This document shows positions 7,960-56,470 of a DNA stretch of 64,000 nucleotides, one piece after another. The position numbers and the translations under genes were made by a program. The notes under the pieces are model-generated. The model saw only the letters and a list, made by a program, of their open reading frames with translations. It ran no database searches and was not told where the DNA came from. The stretch comes from an uncultured virus (IMG/VR IMGVR_UViG_3300031565_000002). Lineage: Duplodnaviria > Heunggongvirae > Uroviricota > Caudoviricetes. The DNA lies in IMG/VR virus record IMGVR_UViG_3300031565_000002; one strand, 5' to 3'. Positions within the stretch are counted from its first letter, which is position 1. Each line of letters opens with the position of its first letter.

Positions 7960-8692
7960 TTTCCAATGCCTTCATATCTTTGTATAAATCTATATATTCA
8001 AAATTTTCGGGAACTCTTATATTAGAAACAAGATAATGTTTTATAGTCCCAGATTCAGACACTACCACTTCATCAAATATTGTCTGTCTATAACCATCTA
8101 ACATTTTATCTCTCTTATTATCGCTATTATACATTTTCTGATTATGTGTTGTAGCCTTGCTGTTAACGCCAAACTTCCCCGATTGCTTTTTATGCTTAAC
8201 ATGATAAATTTCCATCCCCAATTTAGTAAGTGGACACCGAATACTTATTATACCATCTTCAGCACCCCAACCAATAAGTAAATTTGAATAACCATTAGAC
8301 TGTTCAAATTCAGATCTCTTAAAAACAATACAACCACCATGCCCCGGTCTTTTCAATTTCTCATCAGTAATTTTCGGATTCTTAATATCATCTTCTATAA
8401 TTGTAATAAGATATGACCAAGGCACAAATGGCCTTTTCATTCTACCTGTCATTTCTTCAAAATCAATCTTTTCTATAAACCTTATGTCAGCATCAATAAT
8501 TGCTATTGTACTACCACTTGATTTTTTAAAACCAATATTCCTAACTTGCCCCAATTTGAATGGTTCATCGTTATTTTGCTCAACTATTACAACCTCATAC
8601 TCACTACCCCTATAACATTTACGGATATTATAAATTAAACCATCCAGCATATAGAGCCGACTGCTATTTATGGGAACTATAAAACTAATCAC
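7952..8692 (-). CDS. GT2/GT7-like glycosyltransferase
   Basis: ISFIVP, VEQ, IDAD, GYSNLLIGWGAED; GTG start with GGAG upstream. Confidence 0.85.
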   Translation of the reverse strand: MISFIVPINSSRLYMLDGLIYNIRKCYRGSEYEVVIVEQNNDEPFKLGQVRNIGFKKSSGSTIAIIDADIRFIEKIDFEEMTGRMKRPFVPWSYLITIIEDDIKNPKITDEKLKRPGHGGCIVFKRSEFEQSNGYSNLLIGWGAEDGIISIRCPLTKLGMEIYHVKHKKQSGKFGVNSKATTHNQKMYNSDNKRDKMLDGYRQTIFDEVVVSESGTIKHYLVSNIRVPENFEYIDLYKDMKALEND

Positions 8693-8705
8693 AAAAATTC
8701 TCCAA

Positions 8706-9557
8706 TTAAATATGTGGATCGCTAAAATGATCCTCATTAAATTCATCATCGTTTTTTAGCAATTCTGTATGACCATCATTAAAGGTCAAAAGAATATCGT
8801 CACTAGTTTCACCTAAAAACTCACCATAAATCATTCCCAGGTCTATATACTTTTTTATCAATTCTTCACCAAAAGTATCGCTCAAAAATTCAGGAGCAAA
8901 TTGGAACTTAATCTCCACCTCTCCTGTGTCAACTTTCTTCAAACCTTCGAGTAAATCTATGTAATATTCCCATCCTTCTTTAATCTTATGATCAGGAATA
9001 TTTTCTGACCATTCAAGTTCTATAGAATCTTTATCGCAAAAATCATAATGCGTATCAATATACGCTAGTATAAAACCTTCAGCAGATTTCCTATCTAAAT
9101 AATCAATAGGTATAACACCACCTATAAAAGATGGCTTCACCCCAAAATCATCCACCGGAACATTTGGCAAATCTGTTTCATATTTATCAGGATCATCAAA
9201 ATAATCATAATAATAACCCATAACAATATGATTACATTTTAAAATATCCGTAAGAGTCATACCAAAAACGGAAGTATCATTCAGTTCTTCTTCTACACTA
9301 CCAGGCTCATCTAATTCCAGTTGCTCTCCATATTTACCATTGAGGTCACTTATACTTTCTTCGATAAATTTTCTAGACTGAACTTCGGTAAGTTTTTCGT
9401 CAAAGAAAACACCATTAACAAAGACAGTGATATATACATCCATCTTCGAAATAGTAGCAGGCGTGCCATCCGCGTGCTTATACCCTTTTTCTGCCCATAG
9501 CAATCCTAGAGACGTTGACTCTAGGGTGACTTTTACCTTTTTCTGATTCTTCACCAT
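8706..9557 (-). CDS. Hypothetical acidic protein
   Basis: 283-aa ORF in the minus-strand gene run. Confidence 0.6.
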   Translation of the reverse strand: MVKNQKKVKVTLESTSLGLLWAEKGYKHADGTPATISKMDVYITVFVNGVFFDEKLTEVQSRKFIEESISDLNGKYGEQLELDEPGSVEEELNDTSVFGMTLTDILKCNHIVMGYYYDYFDDPDKYETDLPNVPVDDFGVKPSFIGGVIPIDYLDRKSAEGFILAYIDTHYDFCDKDSIELEWSENIPDHKIKEGWEYYIDLLEGLKKVDTGEVEIKFQFAPEFLSDTFGEELIKKYIDLGMIYGEFLGETSDDILLTFNDGHTELLKNDDEFNEDHFSDPHI

Positions 9558-10323
9558 TTATAATAGCCTCAAAAGATTCTCTTAAAACATTAACTAATGC
9601 ATCATGATTATTTTCTACACCATCGCCAGTATGCTCAAATTTCTTTATAATATCAGTCAATTGATCATCGGTATAATTATCGCTATCACAAACAGTATTC
9701 TCTACAAATTCACATTCAAAAACAAATACTATACCATCCTCACTAAAATGAAAATCTTTCATTTTAGCAGAATCACCAGGAAAAGTCCGGTTATTTACTA
9801 CCTCATCAAATTCAATATGATCCCTTAATACATCATTGAAAAAATCACTCTTATAAGCATAACCAGAAGATTTGTTACTGCAATATTTTATAATCTCACT
9901 AAATTTTACTTTCAAACTATATGTTTTAGTAACATTAAGAGAAACACTGATAGCATCCCGAAATAATTCAGCCTTATATTTATCGGGATCCTTATAACTC
10001 TCATCTCTCCATATAACTTCATATTTATCTCTCTCATTCAACTCATTTATAATATCATCAATAGATGTTACACCCTCAACGTCCATATTCATAACACCAA
10101 ACCCAGGGGCATCTGATTCTCTTTCTAATTCATAAAAAGCATGACTGAGTTCAGAATTTAACATAGTGTACCCTTTATCATACTTAAAAATCAGAGCATA
10201 TTCCTTTAAGTCAAAATCTACACCCATCCCATTATCTACAGTTTCCCCGACCAATGGTGTTTTCAGAATAACAATCGGACTAACATGATTGCCGTCACAT
10301 ATCTCTTTAATCTTATCTATCAT
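9478..10323 (-). CDS. Hypothetical acidic protein
   Basis: 281-aa ORF coupled to the upstream gene (ATGA overlap). Confidence 0.6.
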   Translation of the reverse strand: MIDKIKEICDGNHVSPIVILKTPLVGETVDNGMGVDFDLKEYALIFKYDKGYTMLNSELSHAFYELERESDAPGFGVMNMDVEGVTSIDDIINELNERDKYEVIWRDESYKDPDKYKAELFRDAISVSLNVTKTYSLKVKFSEIIKYCSNKSSGYAYKSDFFNDVLRDHIEFDEVVNNRTFPGDSAKMKDFHFSEDGIVFVFECEFVENTVCDSDNYTDDQLTDIIKKFEHTGDGVENNHDALVNVLRESFEAIINGEESEKGKSHPRVNVSRIAMGRKRV

Positions 10324-10751
10324 ATTACCTCATCTTTCAAAAAATTAGCTTCATCAACTGACTTATGGACAGCCCCAACCCCACCATTTATATGAGAAAA
10401 AAATCGGTAAACACATTCATCTTCACGATTAACCCTAAAGACAGTCAACTTCTCTTTCATATGATCATCAACCTTAACATTCATAACTTTCAAAACTAAC
10501 CTGTCAGACTCTGGATCAAGTTCAACATAATTAACGTCTTCACCTACTGCATCCATAAAATCATCAATGTCACTTTGACTATATACATCTTTCTCCTTGT
10601 TCTGCCCTATCCTAAAATAAAGACAATATTTTCTTTGATCTGGAGAAAGATTTTCTGTACTTTCATCAGCAGTACAATATCCATCTTCATTATTTGAACA
10701 AATAATTTCATCACAATCAAAATCGTCTATTTCCTGCATACAATATGGCAT
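10320..10751 (-). CDS. Hypothetical protein, Cys-rich N-terminus
   Basis: 143-aa ORF; C-x4-C-x7-C pattern. Confidence 0.55.
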   Translation of the reverse strand: MPYCMQEIDDFDCDEIICSNNEDGYCTADESTENLSPDQRKYCLYFRIGQNKEKDVYSQSDIDDFMDAVGEDVNYVELDPESDRLVLKVMNVKVDDHMKEKLTVFRVNREDECVYRFFSHINGGVGAVHKSVDEANFLKDEVI

Positions 10752-10756
10752 AATAA

Positions 10757-11479
10757 CTATATCCTTTTAACATTATATCTCAATGAATACCCTCTTGACT
10801 CGTCTACATTCTCAAATACTTTATTTATTCTTTCCAATTCATCCTTAATTAATACAAACTTTTGAACTAACATATCCTCAGGCCAACTATTAAGATCAGA
10901 GCTTGGCTTTCCACCAGCAGCATCGCTGAGTTCAGTGTAGAAATAAGAAGTCGGAAGATAAAACCGATCAAACTTACCGGCAAATGCCTTTAGCCTTTCT
11001 TTTAAATAGCCAATATGGGCAACTGCTTTTTCAAACGTCCTATCTTCATCGTCTGAGTCATACCCAAAATAAAATTGGAAATACGCTTGAATCTTATTGC
11101 CCTTAGGGAAATAAGTATACTCACCATGACCGTGACTATCAGTACCATCTTTCTGTAGATCATCCCCGATTACCCTTTTCTTCCTATCATCACTCAAATC
11201 AGAGTCAGCCCTAACGCCGTCTTCTGGATATGCCCAGAACAAGTGCCTTCTGCCACATACAAAGAACCCACCCATCAAGTATGATAGATTACCAGAACCA
11301 CATTCCGGACAAGTAACCCTAAAAAGGTCGCCATCTCTATCAATATAATTAGGCTCATAAGTAAGACTCTTCAAATAATCTTTATAGACATCATCAATTG
11401 TCGGAAGATTGTTTTCTTGGGGTGATTCTCCAGGAAACTGCTGAATAATCTTTGGTTTTCTAACAAACTTATTCATCAT
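10757..11479 (-). CDS. Hypothetical protein with zinc ribbon
   Basis: CPECGS...CGRRH; AGGAG RBS upstream. Confidence 0.6.
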   Translation of the reverse strand: MMNKFVRKPKIIQQFPGESPQENNLPTIDDVYKDYLKSLTYEPNYIDRDGDLFRVTCPECGSGNLSYLMGGFFVCGRRHLFWAYPEDGVRADSDLSDDRKKRVIGDDLQKDGTDSHGHGEYTYFPKGNKIQAYFQFYFGYDSDDEDRTFEKAVAHIGYLKERLKAFAGKFDRFYLPTSYFYTELSDAAGGKPSSDLNSWPEDMLVQKFVLIKDELERINKVFENVDESRGYSLRYNVKRI

Positions 11480-11528
11480 TTACTCCTTTCTATATACATA
11501 TATAATATAAACTCATCTTGATAAAAAT

Positions 11529-11561
11529 AAAAAAGGACTGACTTTTTCAAGTCAATCCTTT
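11529..11561 (-). terminator. Intrinsic terminator
   Basis: Imperfect inverted repeat aaaggactgactt/aagtcaatccttt followed by a U-run on the minus strand. Confidence 0.6.
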
Positions 11562-11584
11562 ATCAAAAAATATAATCAGGAGAT

Positions 11585-12205
11585 TTACTTTAATACATCG
11601 TATAATAATTCAGACTGTATAACCTTATTATTCTGTACTTTCTTCCTTATCACTACCCAACCATTATCCTGTGCAAATTTATCTTTTTCAGCATCCTTCA
11701 ATAATTGCTTACCGTTATGATATACTCCATCAAATTCAACAAATATCATTCTTTTAGATAATGCTAAATCAAAAATATAATTACCAAGAATAAACTCAAA
11801 CTCAAAATTTTCATTATTAAATTCTAAAAAATCTATTAACTTTTTATACTTCCACATTTCACGTAATAGCAAAGTCTCTTGAGCGGAAATAAGGTTTTTA
11901 CTTTCCAATCCAGATTTCCTTTGTGCATTACGTCTTTTATCAGTAACACTACCTGAAGATGCACAAGACCTTGAACAAAAGTCAGGACTCTTGGCTCCTG
12001 TTAATGTATCAAATGAAGATTTACAATATAAACATATTTTTTTTATAGGGACTCTTTTATCTAATCTTTCAGCATTTCTTTTCTTTGCAGCACATGATAA
12101 CCCACAATAAAAAATAGTCCGGCCATTCTTAACTTGCCTATTATATTCTCCACTATAAATTAGAAAACTATTACCGCAATATCCACAGATTAAATAAATA
12201 TCCAT
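11585..12205 (-). CDS. Free-standing homing-endonuclease-like protein (CxxC repeats + DUF559/Vsr-like nuclease)
   Basis: CGYC/CGLSC/CLYC/CSRSC repeats, then IFDLAL..IFVEFDGVYH..KDAEKD..GWVVIR; ATG at 12205 avoids overlap with the tmRNA. Confidence 0.75.
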   Translation of the reverse strand: MDIYLICGYCGNSFLIYSGEYNRQVKNGRTIFYCGLSCAAKKRNAERLDKRVPIKKICLYCKSSFDTLTGAKSPDFCSRSCASSGSVTDKRRNAQRKSGLESKNLISAQETLLLREMWKYKKLIDFLEFNNENFEFEFILGNYIFDLALSKRMIFVEFDGVYHNGKQLLKDAEKDKFAQDNGWVVIRKKVQNNKVIQSELLYDVLK

Positions 12206-12233
12206 AAAAGACTTATACAAAAATAAACTTAAT

Positions 12234-12593
12234 TGGAAGTGAGGGGAGTCGAACCCCTGTGTCATTAGCACCGTTAACAAGTCGCTACATGTTTAGTCTA
12301 TCTTTTTATAAACTCTCATCTTCTAATGCGCCGACAAACAAGCTCAATAAAAGACCAGTGCCTTATCTTACTCACCGGCCAACACTTCCGGCAAGCCAGT
12401 ACTCAAATTTGGGTCGAATCACAGTGAGTACACCCGTAATCCAACCAGACCACTTTTTTCTAAGCAGCCATACCGTATACTAACTCGTAATCTTCGCCAG
12501 TTAGTTTTTGTATCGGATGATTAACGAGGCCAACCGACATCCTCGACATGCTACTTGAAAATTATACCAAAGATCGAAAACCAGTACACTCCC
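12234..12593 (-). ncRNA. ssrA: tmRNA; tag ORF 12498->12460 encodes (A)GEDYELVYGMAA*
   Basis: 5' GGGAGUG pairs with 3' CACUUCC-A with G3.U70; T-arm AGGGG-UUCGACU-CCCCU; about 360 nt; internal ORF ending AA-stop after UAACU. Confidence 0.93.
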
Positions 12594-12596
12594 TTC

Positions 12597-12628
12597 GTTT
12601 CAATCCACGCACCAGTGAATGGCGCGAC
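12597..12628 (-). CRISPR. Solitary type I-C-like CRISPR repeat (not an array)
   Basis: 32-nt GTCGCGCCATTCACTGGTGCGTGGATTGAAAC has the GTCGC...GTGGATTGAAAC form with an internal hairpin; no second copy seen. Confidence 0.75.
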
Positions 12629-12668
12629 ACATTAAATTAATATTTTACTTTTTTTATCAAAATATCGT

Positions 12669-13007
12669 TTATTTATTATGATACTTCTTCCTTATCGCTA
12701 ATACAGGATCTTCAACTACTTCAACCTTATCGCTTTCATCATCCATTAAACTAGCAAGATTACTAACCAACCCAGTAGAAAGGCTTTCGTTCCCCGTATC
12801 AGAAACTATTGAAAAAACATCATTCTCAAGATTAATAGTTATTTCCATAGTATAAATATCCTTCTTAACCGGCTCTGATTCATCTTTCCCTAAACCCATC
12901 TGTGATCTTAAAAACTCAAGTAACATTTCCTGTAAATACTCAGTCTTTACCTGACTCCAAACCTTAAAAGTATCTTCCTTGAGATTGTACTGAATTTTTA
13001 TTTTCAA
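12669..13007 (-). CDS. Hypothetical protein (last gene of the Ubl/TROVE operon)
   Basis: 112-aa ORF starting 2 nt after the E1 stop. Confidence 0.6.
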   Translation of the reverse strand: MKIKIQYNLKEDTFKVWSQVKTEYLQEMLLEFLRSQMGLGKDESEPVKKDIYTMEITINLENDVFSIVSDTGNESLSTGLVSNLASLMDDESDKVEVVEDPVLAIRKKYHNK

Positions 13008-13009
13008 TA

Positions 13010-13657
13010 TTACTCCAATTCTAAAATTTTAAAATCTCCCAAAGTTATAGAACGAGAAACCTTATTCCCACTCTCAACATATTGAATAATTGTTTCAATT
13101 CCTACAATGGCTGACATCATACAAATGTTCCTCGATAAAGGATACTCGCACACATCAGGGCCGTTATTACCTTTTGGAACAATATATCTCTCATTCCATA
13201 CAACTTCACCATAACCTTCAGCTAATCCAATATGCAAACAATCAATTTTTCTTTCTTTACAAAAATCAGTAACAATTCCACGGCTCTCGCTATTATCAAA
13301 AGAATCAATAACAATCAGATTTTCTAATTCGGGCCAATTAATTTTCTTTATATTCGATTCAGTTAATCTTTGATCAATAACATTTATCTTAATGCCCATA
13401 CTGGCAAAAGCAATATTTTTCATCACCTGAACCTTTTTCGATCCGACTTCTCTTTTACCCCATATCTGCATTCCTCTATTATGGTCTTCAATGCGGTCAT
13501 TGTCAACTACGGTAATATTCTCAAACCCCTGCCTTATCATATTGACAATCAAATTAGAGCCAATAGCCCCGCAGCCACATACCACTATAGTATAATCTTT
13601 CAGCTTCGAAACAATATCTTTACCACGATACGACATTTCATGCTCTAAATGATGCAT
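13010..13657 (-). CDS. ThiF/E1-like ubiquitin-activating adenylyltransferase
   Basis: GCGAIGS nucleotide-binding loop, DNDRIEDHN, DSFDN; candidate catalytic Cys in DVCEY. Confidence 0.9.
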   Translation of the reverse strand: MHHLEHEMSYRGKDIVSKLKDYTIVVCGCGAIGSNLIVNMIRQGFENITVVDNDRIEDHNRGMQIWGKREVGSKKVQVMKNIAFASMGIKINVIDQRLTESNIKKINWPELENLIVIDSFDNSESRGIVTDFCKERKIDCLHIGLAEGYGEVVWNERYIVPKGNNGPDVCEYPLSRNICMMSAIVGIETIIQYVESGNKVSRSITLGDFKILELE

Positions 13658-14021
13658 CCCATTTTCCTTTCTGCTCTATTGCAAAATAGAAATTACCTAT
13701 AAAAAAATCCTTAACAAATTTAATCTTCTTATCCTTAGTAAATAAGTAAGAATTCCTTACTGTTTTATTACTATTCCATATACCACAAATAAGATCTTTC
13801 CAATGACAACTAACCCATGCCCCCATTGTTCTCCTATCTCTGTCGCTATATTCAATCCCATCTCCTGGGTGATTATGGTAAAAACCCAGCAACCACCTTG
13901 AATTATATACTTTCTCCCAGTCAAAGACAACATTAGCAGTGCCACCATTAGAATGATACACTATCCTTCCTATGCGGAACCATAATATTTTTATGCCAAA
14001 TAAAAAGTAACAATTTTCCAA
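13638..14021 (-). CDS. JAB/MPN+ (JAMM) metallopeptidase
   Basis: GFYHNHPGDGIEYSDRD fits HxH-x7-S-x2-D to within one residue of spacing (x6). Confidence 0.82.
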   Translation of the reverse strand: MENCYFLFGIKILWFRIGRIVYHSNGGTANVVFDWEKVYNSRWLLGFYHNHPGDGIEYSDRDRRTMGAWVSCHWKDLICGIWNSNKTVRNSYLFTKDKKIKFVKDFFIGNFYFAIEQKGKWDASFRA

Positions 14022-14030
14022 AATATTCCT

Positions 14031-14519
14031 TTATTTAAATAAATGCTCCTGCCCTGGCAATGTATATACATATACCTTAACGCTCGGGCAAGATTCCTTG
14101 ATACACTCTTCAATAATATTCCACTTCCCCTTCGCAAGCCCAGAGCCTATTCTCGGCATATGAATGGTACAATTATTATTACTAGCCTGATAATGTACAG
14201 ACCCAAGGCATCTCTTTAATGAACCATACCTAATAGGTGGTACACCATCAACTACCTTAGTCCCTTGCTGTGCAATCATATTTGCAACTATGATTTGAGT
14301 ATTAACACTGACCAGTTGAATGTTACCCAATTTAGGCTTTAAACCAAATTCATTAGGAGATTCGAACCACTTCCGGTATCCTTCTTCCGCTAATGGGTAT
14401 TTTTTGCTTAATGCCAAAACAAAACCTCTGCCCCACCCACCTATATCATTACAAACATGAGCAATAATAGCAGGCTTGACAATCGGTTCAGTTGCATCTC
14501 CGGTAATATATTCTATCAT
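14031..14519 (-). CDS. Macrodomain protein (ADP-ribose processing, TARG1/DarG-like)
   Basis: IEYITGDAT, AHVCNDIGGWGRGF, MPRIGSGLAKGKW. Confidence 0.88.
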   Translation of the reverse strand: MIEYITGDATEPIVKPAIIAHVCNDIGGWGRGFVLALSKKYPLAEEGYRKWFESPNEFGLKPKLGNIQLVSVNTQIIVANMIAQQGTKVVDGVPPIRYGSLKRCLGSVHYQASNNNCTIHMPRIGSGLAKGKWNIIEECIKESCPSVKVYVYTLPGQEHLFK

Positions 14520-14521
14520 AA

Positions 14522-15370
14522 TTAATTCCTTGTCCTTATTATTAAACTCCTGTTCTGCCCTTCTCTCATAACACCAACTAAACTTTTCAAATCAAAATCA
14601 CTATCATGACCATTCAAGCAAATACCGGCAGAAATAATATTATGGGCAGAATCCTTACTTACAAATGAAGTGTATTCATTTCCATCAACCATATAAGTAA
14701 TAGAATAACTGTCCTTACGCTCTCTATATGAAACTAATTCACCGCCAGCATGAGAAACAGCATCTTTAAGTCCATCTTTAGCCGTCTTCTTATGTAATTC
14801 TTTATCCATTCCAAATTTAATTGCATAAGCTGCCTTTTCCTCAAACATGAGTCCTGAAAACTTTAGTTTATCTGGCTTTAGTGCTTTAGAATAATTTTCT
14901 CTTAAATATTCACCTTTCATTAAATCATTATTCTGGTCTGCTATTTCAAACCATATATTACAACCATCGAATCTACAAATAACAATTTCGAAATCAAGGG
15001 TATTATCATCTGTCAAATATATTGGTAACAATGATTCAGAACTAATCCCCAATTTATTCCCCTTCTGAGGAATACCATAATAAACACCATTATTCTTATA
15101 AGAAGTGACCAATCTTATTGATGGTAATTTTTTCAAATATGCATCAACATCACTAAAATCTGCTTCACTCTCAACTTTCGCATTCTCAAAATTAGTAGGC
15201 TTAAACATATACCACCCAGGATCAATAGCCTTGATCTTCAAGGTATGAACTACACCCTGGATTCTCATTGCAACAATCCTATTGCCAAAAACAGGAGAGA
15301 TAAATTCCATTTCTGTAATTTTACTCTCCTGTTCAGCAAACTTATCCAAAATTTTAAGTGGATCAACCAT
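14522..15370 (-). CDS. Operon protein with a putative divergent E2-like C-terminal domain
   Basis: AHNIISAGICLNG resembles the E2 HPN..G.ICL active site; lies among Ubl/E1/JAB genes. Confidence 0.45.
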   Translation of the reverse strand: MVDPLKILDKFAEQESKITEMEFISPVFGNRIVAMRIQGVVHTLKIKAIDPGWYMFKPTNFENAKVESEADFSDVDAYLKKLPSIRLVTSYKNNGVYYGIPQKGNKLGISSESLLPIYLTDDNTLDFEIVICRFDGCNIWFEIADQNNDLMKGEYLRENYSKALKPDKLKFSGLMFEEKAAYAIKFGMDKELHKKTAKDGLKDAVSHAGGELVSYRERKDSYSITYMVDGNEYTSFVSKDSAHNIISAGICLNGHDSDFDLKSLVGVMREGQNRSLIIRTRN

Positions 15371-15374
15371 GCTT

Positions 15375-17006
15375 TTAAGCTACTTTCTTTTTTCTACCTT
15401 TCCTTAGCTTCCGAAAAATCTCATCGAAAGGTTTGCGGACAGGTAACGGATAATCCTGAATCTCATAAAGCAATTCTAACTTTGATTTCTGAGATAACAA
15501 TGGGATTAATCCCGGTAAAGCATAATATCCTTTATCGTCATCTGAAATATCAAACTGGGTATAATCTCCCACAGCATTTGTTAGCCCAGCCCTAAAATTT
15601 CTGATCCAAGAAGGCTCATTACCATAACGTGAATCAGCATCAACTCTGATAACAACAACATTAGGATCAACATTCATAGCATTTTTATAAGATGTAATAG
15701 CATCGCCTATAAATGGTGCACGGTTTTCTCCTTCATCCGTAATCAAAACTATCTGCTCGACATAATACTTCATTCTCTGGAGAAACGCTACACCGACACC
15801 AACAGATGTCGCTCCACCAGCATTGACACCTCTAAATGCATCCTCCCACGAAGTCATTGTATGACTTTTAGACTTTATTTCACGTGCCATAGTATCAGCG
15901 GTCAAAACGTAAAGTTTATCATTAGTAGCACCAGAAATCATAGATGCTACTATCTTACCAACCTCAATAGCAATGTCCATACTCGCTGAAACATCAACTA
16001 TTACAGCAGTTGGTAAATTGATAGTTCTTTTCCTCTTGATACTTTCATCGGCAACCTTATCTAACTGATCTGCAATTTCAGAATCTTCAACGCCGGATGA
16101 TGTCTTGGCAACTTTTGCCTTTAATCCAGATACATGCTTCGCACTCTCTGCCTTTTTCAACTTCTCCATAACAAGTTTTTTAAGGTCAGGATTGTTATAC
16201 GCACCACGATCCCTCAATGATCCAATGTTATTAATTACCTGTTGAGGAGTCATCTGACTAATCAAAGCAGTAAGAATACTCGGAGTCATTTTCTTAATAA
16301 GACCAACAGCAGTAATATAAGGAACGTTATTCTTTATAATAAGTTCTGCCTTTTTAGCCGGACTTCTGGCTTCCATGATCTGCTTCAATATAATAAGCTT
16401 ACTATCTTCAGGGATATTTCTATCAAAAAGAATAGCCTTTGCCCTGTCAGATGGCTTCATCTGAATCGACGCATATAACCCGATTATTGGATTAAAGTTA
16501 GAAAGCACTACATCATCAAACCTATCATTATCACTCTCAAGCCACTTTAGATAATTGGCTATTTCAACCTTTAATGAACGGGTAAGATATCTTTTAAGCC
16601 CTACATATTTCTTCTCTGTAATAGGCTTATCAATAGTTTTTCCACCCTTAATCTTAATCTTCTTAGTTTTGTCCCTGGTCGTTATTTTAACCGGCTTTCC
16701 TCTAATAAGACCTTTTACTCTTTCCTTCATAAAAGGTGGAAGAAGCCTGAAAAGAGCCAGCCCTGTCTCTCTATTATCAATAAATGGATCAACACATAAC
16801 AAACCGGTAAAAACCTCATTATGATCCCTGATTTCACCAAATTCCCCATGCCAAGCTGCTAGCCGTGCATAAAAAAGTGGATCTGATTTCTGAACTGCCC
16901 TATGCACCTCGATAATCTTATCAAGGTCGCGATGAGGGCATTGTAAAATTGAGTTCAATAAAGAGACTCGCTCATCCGACTCAGGTCTGGATGTATCTCT
17001 AGTCAT
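15375..17006 (-). CDS. TROVE/Ro60-like helical domain + vWA domain protein
   Basis: N-terminal DPLFYARLAAW..IRD as in TROVE proteins; C-terminal MIDAS DVSASM, GGATS, LITDEGEN. Confidence 0.78.
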   Translation of the reverse strand: MTRDTSRPESDERVSLLNSILQCPHRDLDKIIEVHRAVQKSDPLFYARLAAWHGEFGEIRDHNEVFTGLLCVDPFIDNRETGLALFRLLPPFMKERVKGLIRGKPVKITTRDKTKKIKIKGGKTIDKPITEKKYVGLKRYLTRSLKVEIANYLKWLESDNDRFDDVVLSNFNPIIGLYASIQMKPSDRAKAILFDRNIPEDSKLIILKQIMEARSPAKKAELIIKNNVPYITAVGLIKKMTPSILTALISQMTPQQVINNIGSLRDRGAYNNPDLKKLVMEKLKKAESAKHVSGLKAKVAKTSSGVEDSEIADQLDKVADESIKRKRTINLPTAVIVDVSASMDIAIEVGKIVASMISGATNDKLYVLTADTMAREIKSKSHTMTSWEDAFRGVNAGGATSVGVGVAFLQRMKYYVEQIVLITDEGENRAPFIGDAITSYKNAMNVDPNVVVIRVDADSRYGNEPSWIRNFRAGLTNAVGDYTQFDISDDDKGYYALPGLIPLLSQKSKLELLYEIQDYPLPVRKPFDEIFRKLRKGRKKKVA

Positions 17007-17336: not shown

Positions 17337-17475
17337 GGGTTAGCGTCCGTTTTGAAAATGCAAGTTTTGGTTTGCGTAATAGGAATTGAACCTACGACAA
17401 TTTGATTAGTAATCAAATGCTCTACCAACTGAGCTATATGCAATGTATGCATTAAAGGTCGAAGACGCTTAACCC
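17337..17475 (-). ncRNA. Y-RNA-like ncRNA: terminal stem enclosing a complete 76-nt tRNA-like module (17368..17443, anticodon ACU)
   Basis: GGGUUA-A-GCGUC pairs with GACGC-UAACCC; inner AAUGCA/UGCAUU stem; cloverleaf ending ACCA; followed by U6. Confidence 0.72.
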
Positions 17476-43791: not shown

Positions 43792-45062
43792 CCGTTCCTA
43801 AAAATGTAGTAAAATCTACCATATTGACACCATCAACATTAACGCTTCCGCAAGCGGAAGTCTTACTTAACTCCAATGTCCGTTTAGGTGGGCTGAAACG
43901 TTTCCACACCATAATTCAAAATATTTATAGCCGCATTACGGTCCCTGTCAATCATAAGACCACAATCGCATACGTAAATCCTATCAGACAATTTCAAGTT
44001 ATCCTTGATAGCCCCGCAAGCAGAACACATCTTAGATGATGGGAAAAAACGATTAACAATAAGAACTACGTTATCACGTAATTTCGCCTTATATTCAAGA
44101 AATCGCCTGAACATACCAAGTCCTGCATCAGATATAGCCCGTGCCAACTTATGATTTTTAACCATACCGTTAACATTTAAATCCTCAATACAGATAGTAT
44201 GATATTTAGATGTTAACATATCAGTTAACTCATGCAAAACCGCCTTGCGTTGTTTTGATATCAAAAAATGAAGTTTAGCAACCTGAAACTTGGCTTTTGC
44301 TTTCCGATTACTGCCATTCTGTTTTCGACTCAATTTACGTTGCAGTTTTTTAAGTTTAACAAGACTATCCTTAAGCTTCTGATTAGCCGGAATAACTACC
44401 CCATCACTTAATGTAGCAAGATTTTTAATCCCTAAATCTACACCGATAGAACCTACTCCAGCAACTTTATTATAATCAATAGTTTCAACAAGAATACTTA
44501 CGAAATATTTACCAGCACGTTTACTAATGGTAATCTGTTTAGGGACTCCATTAAAACATAATTGTTGCCGAAGTTTAATTAATGTTTTTAATTTTTCAAT
44601 CCTAATCCATCGACCACGGATATCAAACTTAGGCTGCTCTCTCAAAGAAAAAGAATCATTAATATTTTTCTTCTTAAATTTCGGAAATCCAGGCTTCTTA
44701 CCGCTCTTAACTCTACGGAAAAAATGTTTAAATGCATTATCAAGATCATCTATAGCATTGCGAGTTACACGTTGACTAATTTCTGAATACCAAATAAATT
44801 CTGATCGTAACGATTTATAAAAATTTAAAGCAATTTTTTTATTCCATTTAACTGTTTTATCAGAAAAATGATTCAATAACTGATTATAACAATGCCTGCG
44901 TGAACCGCAGGCTTTATCTAAATAGATAGCCTGATCTTTTGTAGGATATAATTCTATCTTATGTGCAAGTAACATTTTTCTAAAAATTCCTATCATTAAA
45001 CGTAGTAAAATATGCTATATTTTACTACGTTTTACTATATCATCGCTTACTGTTAACAACCC
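43792..45062 (-). mobile_element. Non-autonomous IS607-like element carrying tnpB only
   Basis: GG at both junctions; TAGTAAAA/TTTTACTAC subterminal repeats at both ends; right end ...TTTTTAGGAACGG; no tnpA. Confidence 0.7.
43884..44975 (-). CDS. tnpB: TnpB RNA-guided endonuclease
   Basis: AHKIELYPT HTH, RuvC GVDLG / IEDL / DRDRNAAINI, CSACG..CDCG. Confidence 0.95.
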   Translation of the reverse strand: MLLAHKIELYPTKDQAIYLDKACGSRRHCYNQLLNHFSDKTVKWNKKIALNFYKSLRSEFIWYSEISQRVTRNAIDDLDNAFKHFFRRVKSGKKPGFPKFKKKNINDSFSLREQPKFDIRGRWIRIEKLKTLIKLRQQLCFNGVPKQITISKRAGKYFVSILVETIDYNKVAGVGSIGVDLGIKNLATLSDGVVIPANQKLKDSLVKLKKLQRKLSRKQNGSNRKAKAKFQVAKLHFLISKQRKAVLHELTDMLTSKYHTICIEDLNVNGMVKNHKLARAISDAGLGMFRRFLEYKAKLRDNVVLIVNRFFPSSKMCSACGAIKDNLKLSDRIYVCDCGLMIDRDRNAAINILNYGVETFQPT

Positions 45063-55652: not shown

Positions 55653-55710
55653 TTAAATGGTGACCAGAGGGGGACTTGAACCCCCACGCCTATAAATGGC
55701 AACGGATTTT

Positions 55711-56470
55711 CCTACCACACTTACTTTCATAAGCCAGCAATATTATACTGTTGTAGCCTGGACTATATCATCACCTTCGACTTAACGTTAAGGTGTGGAG
55801 TGCATAGTCTCTGAACCTTCTTCTTGGGATATATCCTTTAGAAACTCGGCTGCTGATTGCCCAATTTCCCATAATTTTATAACTTTCACACTCGCCGTTT
55901 CCAGCCATGTTGTAGTTATGGGAACTATAAGGGTATCCCAGCAATTCTCTCCATTCACAATACTTGATTTCTCAAGTATGGCTCTCTGTTCCCTGATAAA
56001 ATGATGCAATCTAACATGGTTAGTTCTAGAAATAACTACTAAATTAGTTAATTTATTATTCTTTGGATTATCATCTAAATGGTGAACAACTTCATTAGTA
56101 TTTAATTTCCTTTGCAATACTTCTTCGGCTATTCTCCTATGTAACCAACAATATCCTCCACCATGAGCAGGTTCATAAGGATTCAAAAATTTACCAGAAC
56201 TATGAATATTTCTATAACATTCTAAACAATATTTCTGTTCCGGTCTATTTAACCTTATCTTCTTTTTACATAATCCACAAAAACCATACCCATAACGTTT
56301 TTTATTCTTATTTCCTCCTTTCTTATAATATTGTGCCATTCTTCTTTCTAGATAACAACCATGACAGTATCGCCTACCACTTTCACAAGGATTTTTCCTA
56401 CACTTGATGCACATTTTTATCATAATAACAATATAACCAAAACATACATGCAGTATCAAGAAAAACTTGA
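55711..56470 (-). ncRNA. Group I intron in the tRNA-Leu anticodon
   Basis: P AAUUGCUGGGA, Q AAUCAGCAG, R GUUCAGAGACUA, S GAUAUAGUCC; exon ends in U and intron in G; GAGCC guide then P2 hairpin. Confidence 0.92.
55788..56423 (-). CDS. Intron-encoded HNH homing endonuclease
   Basis: LHRRIAE..EVVHHLDDNPKNNKLTNL..H..H; CxxC fingers; C-terminus runs through the intron core. Confidence 0.88.
   Translation of the reverse strand: MIKMCIKCRKNPCESGRRYCHGCYLERRMAQYYKKGGNKNKKRYGYGFCGLCKKKIRLNRPEQKYCLECYRNIHSSGKFLNPYEPAHGGGYCWLHRRIAEEVLQRKLNTNEVVHHLDDNPKNNKLTNLVVISRTNHVRLHHFIREQRAILEKSSIVNGENCWDTLIVPITTTWLETASVKVIKLWEIGQSAAEFLKDISQEEGSETMHSTP

Follow-up and report, generated by a model that had tools for sequence, protein, structure and literature searches.

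A solitary 32-nt CRISPR repeat of the type I-C family (GTCGCGCCATTCACTGGTGCGTGGATTGAAAC) stands directly ahead of a phage tmRNA gene on the minus strand of a 64,000-nt stretch of DNA from an uncultured virus of the Caudoviricetes (IMG/VR record IMGVR_UViG_3300031565_000002), which we refer to throughout as the window. The repeat occupies positions 12597..12628 and is followed by a GAA linker (12594..12596) and then by the first nucleotide of the tmRNA, G1, at 12593. A preliminary description of this DNA had placed the repeat 3 nt ahead of the tmRNA, and our reading of the junction bears this out; the span given there, 12593..12628, takes in the repeat and the tmRNA junction but also includes position 12593, which is G1 of the tmRNA and lies outside the repeat. 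The explanation that we favor, and that we hold to be a serious possibility rather than a probable one, is that the repeat is a candidate viral type I-C decoy of the RNA anti-CRISPR (Racr) type, which would be transcribed within the tmRNA precursor and freed from it by RNase P or by Cas5.

Read along the minus strand, the order of features is the stop codon of a 112-aa ORF (12669), 40 AT-rich nt (12629..12668), the repeat, GAA, and tmRNA G1 (12593), and the strand of the repeat is that of the tmRNA and of all neighboring genes. The repeat is intergenic, between the ORF stop at 12669 and G1 at 12593, and its flanks are free of partial repeats. Specifically, the closest other partial copy within 100 nt on either side matches at 14/32 positions (44%), whereas the rule applied by SRUFinder, in the text available of PMC10651486, concerns partial repeats of more than 70% identity in the 100-nt flanks, of which there should be none; local alignment scores in the flanks were 13-15, compared to a shuffle mean of 15.1. 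Over the window as a whole the repeat matched once at up to three mismatches (shuffles gave a match in 0/100 cases), and no second 32-mer with at least 19/32 identity to it occurs in the 64 kb, in agreement with the earlier claim that the repeat is solitary in the window. There is accordingly no CRISPR array or mini-array, meaning at least two repeats with spacers, around this single repeat copy in the window.

Among the matches listed in a search of GTDB genomes, made with a pattern that fixed the repeat ends and the loop (the last 14 nt of the repeat being fixed letters of the pattern), the nearest array repeats are identical to the phage repeat at 29/32 positions. The pattern matched at least 122 stretches, in arrays of up to 123 repeats, and because the family is spread over many phyla the pattern search does not point to a host. 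In 5/5 genomes tested, arrays of this repeat family lie ~3 kb from a gene for Csd1/Cas8c (PF09709), the type I-C signature. The phage repeat is predicted to fold into a hairpin with a 7-bp stem (5′ strand at 12626-12620, 3′ strand at 12614-12608) and a 5-nt loop (12619-12615), followed by an 11-nt single-stranded tail (12607-12597) that represents the crRNA 5′-handle part; this fold has an energy of -10.4 kcal/mol and makes up 73% of the ensemble. Stem, loop, and tail are preserved despite three differences from the nearest array repeat: the pair that closes the loop is A-T instead of C-G, and one G-C pair has become G-U. The best Rfam match, CRISPR-DR9, reached 19 bits (E 0.037), below its gathering score of 45, in a test that is weakened by the longer loop region of the model. 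Judged by its sequence, the repeat is an intact, bona fide member of the type I-C repeat family, and the type I-C identity proposed in the preliminary description is borne out by the match to arrays beside Csd1/Cas8c together with the presence of the hairpin and the 11-nt tail.

One route by which such a repeat could have reached the phage is the capture of an array junction. A host type I-C spacer would have matched phage sequence starting from GAA-GGGAG, and recombination between spacer and protospacer would have copied the repeat into the phage, replaced the PAM side, and made the site uncuttable, leaving a scar that needs no present RNA function. We consider this origin without function unlikely, even though it would account for a repeat that ends exactly where a spacer would begin, that has the orientation of an array relative to the downstream sequence, and whose GC-rich sequence is foreign to a phage of 33% GC. 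The state of the repeat argues against it, as hairpin and handle are intact, though each of the three positions that differ from the nearest array repeat has gone from GC to AT. The intact hairpin and handle suggest either very recent capture or selection, and we infer that the repeat either arrived recently or is being selected for the features recognized by a Cas5-type enzyme. The searches for relatives speak in the same direction. No spacer-length match to the window was found among 372 array and repeat loci, the longest match being 22 nt, and no sister phage lacking the insertion was found that would show the ancestral PAM: blastn of 11000-14500 against GenBank phages gave no match, the ThiF-like neighbor described below had no relative in IMG/VR, the 20-nt 5′ end of the tmRNA had no match in IMG/VR, and the best identity of the DnaE protein was 45% in IMG/VR and less than 40% in GenBank phages. 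A repeat that originated by capture could still serve as a Racr today.

The exact repeat occurs neither in GTDB genomes nor in the 2.9 million viral contigs of IMG/VR, and among 241 million records of JGI metagenomes it occurs only in the contig of the phage itself. Being found once only across the three collections, it belongs to no array of identical repeats assembled in them. Metagenome DNA runs carry the stretch unchanged, with no RNA run among the public runs listed for it; in two of the DNA runs, X7 and X8, positions 12483-12722 are covered by the same 240-nt contig, and the two may be duplicate deposits of a single data set. We note that contigs of X2 and X6 match ~12594-12628 only and then diverge on both sides, and that these probably come from other DNA in the same samples, as parts of type I-C-like arrays or as further lone repeats.

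The single occurrence of the exact repeat bears on the possibility that the phage has a CRISPR-Cas system of its own, in which a Cas5-type enzyme of an I-C-like system encoded elsewhere in the genome would bind or cut the repeat and would thereby either mature the tmRNA from its precursor or produce a guide. I-C-variant systems have been reported from huge phages in the text available of PMC7162821, and the window covers only a portion of a larger genome: at 100% identity it shares positions 8597-16628 with metagenome contig L001, whose coordinates extend ~14 kb past the left end of the window. Nevertheless, a repeat that occurs once only in the metagenome records, the viral contigs, and the GTDB genomes is not what such a system would lead one to expect, and PADLOC detected no type I-C cas gene among the 80 minus-strand ORFs of at least 60 aa in the 64-kb window, itself part of that larger genome. 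We regard an own system as distinctly unlikely. For type I-C and for these 80 ORFs, the PADLOC result also upholds the earlier statement that the window has no cas gene.

Its gene content identifies the window as the region for replication and tRNA genes in a large genome that resembles those of huge phages. Every one of the 80 non-nested ORFs of at least 60 aa is encoded on the minus strand, the GC content is ~0.33 and the GC skew ~-0.35. Among the products encoded are a DnaE-type polymerase, a beta clamp, a delta subunit, RecA, a primase-helicase, SbcCD, a UvsW-like helicase, several methyltransferases, and TnpB; the RNA genes include 16 tRNAs called by ARAGORN and a group I intron. In having a tmRNA among many tRNAs and replication genes the window resembles the huge-phage genomes in which tmRNA genes were described by Al-Shayeb et al. 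2020 (PMC7162821), from which it differs in that a CRISPR repeat in the tmRNA leader is not mentioned in the available portion of that paper. No CRISPR-like repeat lies ahead of any of the 16 tRNA genes called by ARAGORN in the window. Several other features of the region were observed along the way. A class-II (Leu-like) tRNA missed by ARAGORN (~56505-55657, minus strand) has its 5′ exon right after tRNA-Thr(ggt) and is interrupted by the group I intron (Rfam, 55737-56010), which carries an HNH-like ORF (55788-56459); its 3′ exon supplies the T-arm, the acceptor strand, and CCA near 55657. The tRNA at 17368-17443, with anticodon ACT, is called as Ser though it is only 76 nt long. The TnpB gene (43884-44996, minus strand) encodes a TnpB/Cas12f-like IS605 OrfB inside the replication module (PHROG transposase, 1e-109; PADLOC Cas12f models).

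RNase P makes the 5′ ends of tmRNAs. The tmRNA gene of the phage (12231..12593 by Rfam, 12234..12593 by ARAGORN; minus strand) matches RF00023 over the full model (positions 1-374) with 135.3 bits (gathering score 47, E 8.6e-53), and ARAGORN finds in it a tag frame that encodes the peptide GEDYELVYGMAA, followed by a stop. Its acceptor stem, GGGAGUG/CACUUCC, is tRNA-Ala-like in having a G3-U pair, and this reading bears out the earlier proposal that the repeat adjoins a substrate of the RNase P type. The 3′ CCA is not encoded in the tmRNA gene, nor in any of the 16 tRNA genes called by ARAGORN (0/17 RNA genes), so that a CCA-adding enzyme is required. Between the hairpin of the repeat and the RNase P site at G1, the 11-nt tail and GAA leave 14 nt unpaired in the predicted fold. 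A 9-bp pairing of the handle with the 5′ region of the tmRNA, which appeared in a 109-nt fold, was dropped as this fold is not unusual (z -1.28).

These features suggest how a decoy could be made. Any transcript that starts at or above 12626 and yields the tmRNA would carry the repeat in its 5′ leader, and RNase P cutting after GAA would then liberate an RNA with the complete repeat hairpin, the handle, and GAA at its 3′ end. Alternatively, a Cas5c/d-type enzyme of a type I-C host could cut at the base of the hairpin, consistent with the processing of pre-crRNA by Cas5 in type I-C systems as given in the available part of PMC10651486. Once freed, the repeat RNA would bind Cas5 and Cas7 and divert both from real crRNAs, a mode of action demonstrated for RacrIF1 and implied by what RacrIC1 does. 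Through its coupling to the tmRNA, the repeat would be expressed strongly and early while needing neither a promoter nor a terminator for itself.

Whether the repeat is transcribed with the tmRNA depends on the sequence upstream. A consensus scan found no minus-strand promoter upstream of the repeat, and a scan for terminator-like sites found none between the upstream ORF and the repeat; read-through of the repeat from the upstream genes is possible. By eye, the 40-nt gap contains a weak promoter-like pair, TTGATA (12660-12655) and TTTAAT (12636-12631), 18 nt apart. With TTTAAT as the -10 element, the transcript would begin within the stem's 5′ strand, and the hairpin would be weakened or lost. 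Downstream, the tmRNA is followed directly by an ORF for a DUF559/HNH-like endonuclease (11585..12280, minus strand), which in its longest reading overlaps the 3′ end of the tmRNA and which is probably a homing-type nuclease; a terminator-like hairpin lies behind this ORF at 11561-11532.

The position of the repeat, where an mRNA meets a processed RNA, would also suit a plain structural hairpin, which might protect the 5′ end of the precursor or, once RNase P has cut, stabilize the upstream mRNA at its 3′ end; equally, the repeat might be a neutral passenger that does nothing, or it might seed an array for host Cas1-Cas2. In keeping with such a role, the fold is not unusual compared to shuffles, with a z score of -1.62 for the repeat alone and of -2.68 when 12 upstream nt and GAA are included. 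What this explanation does not account for is the exact 11-nt type I-C handle and the GTCGC start of the repeat, since any hairpin would do, and it is the one to which we give least credence among those weighed here.

The decoy explanation draws its closest precedent from RacrIC1, a solitary type I-C repeat from a Bifidobacterium pseudocatenulatum prophage that, in the available text of Camara-Wilpert et al. 2023 (PMC10651486), lies 11 nt behind acrIC5, is co-transcribed with it, and restored plaquing on a type I-C strain. RacrIC1 thus supports, in the literature, the statement in the preliminary description that solitary type I-C repeats can act as Racrs. The phage repeat resembles RacrIC1, so far as that text describes it, in being a solitary I-C repeat in sense orientation behind a small ORF, with no cas genes found nearby, although the gap to the ORF is 40 nt here and 11 nt in RacrIC1. 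It differs in being known from sequence alone, in having an upstream ORF without likeness to AcrIC5, and in being followed by a tmRNA after 3 nt, an arrangement in which RNase P could define the 3′ end of the repeat RNA. RacrIF1, which belongs to type I-F, provides the proposed mode of action, in which repeat RNA competes with crRNAs for Cas subunits; unlike the repeat described here, it belongs to another subtype with Cas6f as the processing enzyme, is driven by its own strong promoter, and loads Cas7f by means of a long 5′ part. Viral solitary repeat units (SRUs) in general, reported by Faure et al. 2019 as cited in PMC10651486 and numbering 2,103 in the SRUFinder set in the accessible text of that paper, offer a broader comparison. 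Like these, the phage repeat is intergenic, matches its family over the full length, and has no partial repeat within 100 nt. SRUs are not linked to cas genes, and no type I-C cas gene was found among the 80 ORFs scanned in the window, which is part of a larger genome. SRUs are, however, often found just downstream of a predicted promoter, at least in the part of the paper available, whereas no clear promoter was found here within 250 nt upstream.

The resemblance to the acrIC5-racrIC1 operon extends to the layout, and by analogy the 112-aa ORF that lies directly upstream, 40 nt from the repeat (12669..13007, minus strand), is a candidate anti-CRISPR protein. Its product is acidic (~21 acidic and 14 basic residues) and belongs to no known family: it had no match in PHROG, Pfam, PDB, or Atlas and no likeness to a known Acr, and a single-sequence structure model was poor (pLDDT 56.7). 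We note that beyond this ORF, at 13010-14021 on the minus strand, a 215-aa ThiF/E1-like protein (Pfam ThiF, 2.6e-24; PADLOC E1-E2 models) is encoded beside a 127-aa ORF without a family, and that the two may form a small ubiquitin-like conjugation or anti-defense module.

An intact handle followed by phage sequence is also what would be expected of a guide mimic. Host Cas5 would cut at the base of the hairpin and Cascade would assemble on the handle and the adjoining phage sequence; the resulting crRNA-like RNA would target sibling phages that lack the insertion or, like a Cracr, repress a host cas or toxin promoter. Viral crRNA-like regulators, including type I-C ones, are described in the portion available of bioRxiv 10.1101/2024.10.29.618823, and the phage repeat shares with these Cracrs that it would give a phage-encoded RNA derived from a CRISPR repeat and is predicted to depend on Cas proteins of the host. 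On the other hand, Cracrs as presented there combine flanking pseudo-repeats with a spacer-like segment that matches the promoter of a host cas or toxin gene, whereas the phage has a single repeat joined to a tmRNA. The window offers no further repeat, not even a degenerate one, that could set the 3′ end of a guide; cleavage by RNase P would fall 3 nt past the handle; the sequence in the position of a spacer, the acceptor and 5′ region of the tmRNA, is highly structured; and naming a target would require the host or sibling phages. The proposal of a crRNA mimic with the 5′ end of the tmRNA as its spacer is therefore possible but found no support, given the missing second repeat and the position of the RNase P cut, and we consider a guide function very unlikely.

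Returning to the decoy explanation, we asked how common its arrangement is among viral genomes. A looser I-C pattern matched at least 121 loci in IMG/VR; among the matches listed, 79 are solitary, defined as having at least 110 nt on both sides of the repeat, 30 are array-like, and 12 are at contig ends. Solitary I-C-like repeats, recognized by this pattern, are common in viral contigs. ARAGORN was run on 116 of the 121 listed loci, the long arrays L052, L059, L063, L074, and L080 being left out, and among these matches it found a tRNA or tmRNA in 3/116 loci and one adjacent to the repeat in 1/116. In the latter locus (L029, on the 8,851-nt contig L320), 16 nt separate a solitary I-C-like repeat from a tRNA downstream on the same strand. 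The tRNA is a true one (Rfam, 57.5 bits) that clusters with tRNA-Pro and a tmRNA, and tblastx of the contig against the window found nothing in common. Another sequence, LR756501.1, was rejected, as it shares only a small ORF with this contig and is without repeat or tRNA there. Scans that combined the end of the repeat with motifs from the RNA genes gave a similar result: a tmRNA was present in 0/7 loci found with the repeat end and the tmRNA 5′ motif, and contig L320 was the one hit obtained both with a common D-arm word (1/7) and with a looser D-arm word (1/113). No other viral contig with an I-C-like repeat ahead of a tmRNA was found among the IMG/VR matches listed. The placement of a repeat in a tmRNA or tRNA leader is thus real but rare among type I-C repeats in IMG/VR, and being rare, it may be incidental. 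Separately, a single compact, solitary I-C-like mimic recurs in 56/113 loci from the looser D-arm scan (e.g. L322). It measures 27 nt, keeps the handle intact, combines a 4-bp stem with a UUCG-type tetraloop, and lies downstream of a promoter-like stretch that is itself conserved; it looks like a widespread, minimized element of the Racr type.

Solitary phage CRISPR repeats, including a tested type I-C Racr, are known, whereas such a repeat joined to the leader of an RNA that RNase P processes is undescribed in the literature that we searched. Our search found no published SRU in a tRNA or tmRNA leader, though the full SRU tables of the Racr paper, which were outside the search, might contain tRNA-adjacent cases; for solitary repeats in combination with tRNA, tmRNA, or RNase P, it returned only reviews, such as PMC11656645 in the text available, and unrelated papers. 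A wider proposal, which we think doubtful, is that large phages rich in tRNA genes use the 5′ leaders of tmRNA and tRNA precursors to carry anti-CRISPR decoy RNAs; RNase P, a universal enzyme, would release from these leaders one complete Cas-binding repeat per tmRNA or tRNA without a promoter, terminator, or Cas nuclease of its own.

The repeat hints that an uncultured phage of soil or sediment meets type I-C hosts, and were it only a recombination scar it would be the footprint of a past CRISPR attack on the tmRNA region. If instead the leader is released and active, it would make Racr production promoter-free and bring it to the level of the most abundant RNAs of the phage, it would present a compact design for the co-expression of small RNAs, and it would link tRNA and tmRNA cargo with anti-CRISPR activity, two topics of phage biology that have been studied apart. 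Should large tRNA-rich phages in general carry decoys in such leaders, this would constitute a distinct route to Racrs, and the tRNA and tmRNA islands of phages would be islands of RNA counter-defense.
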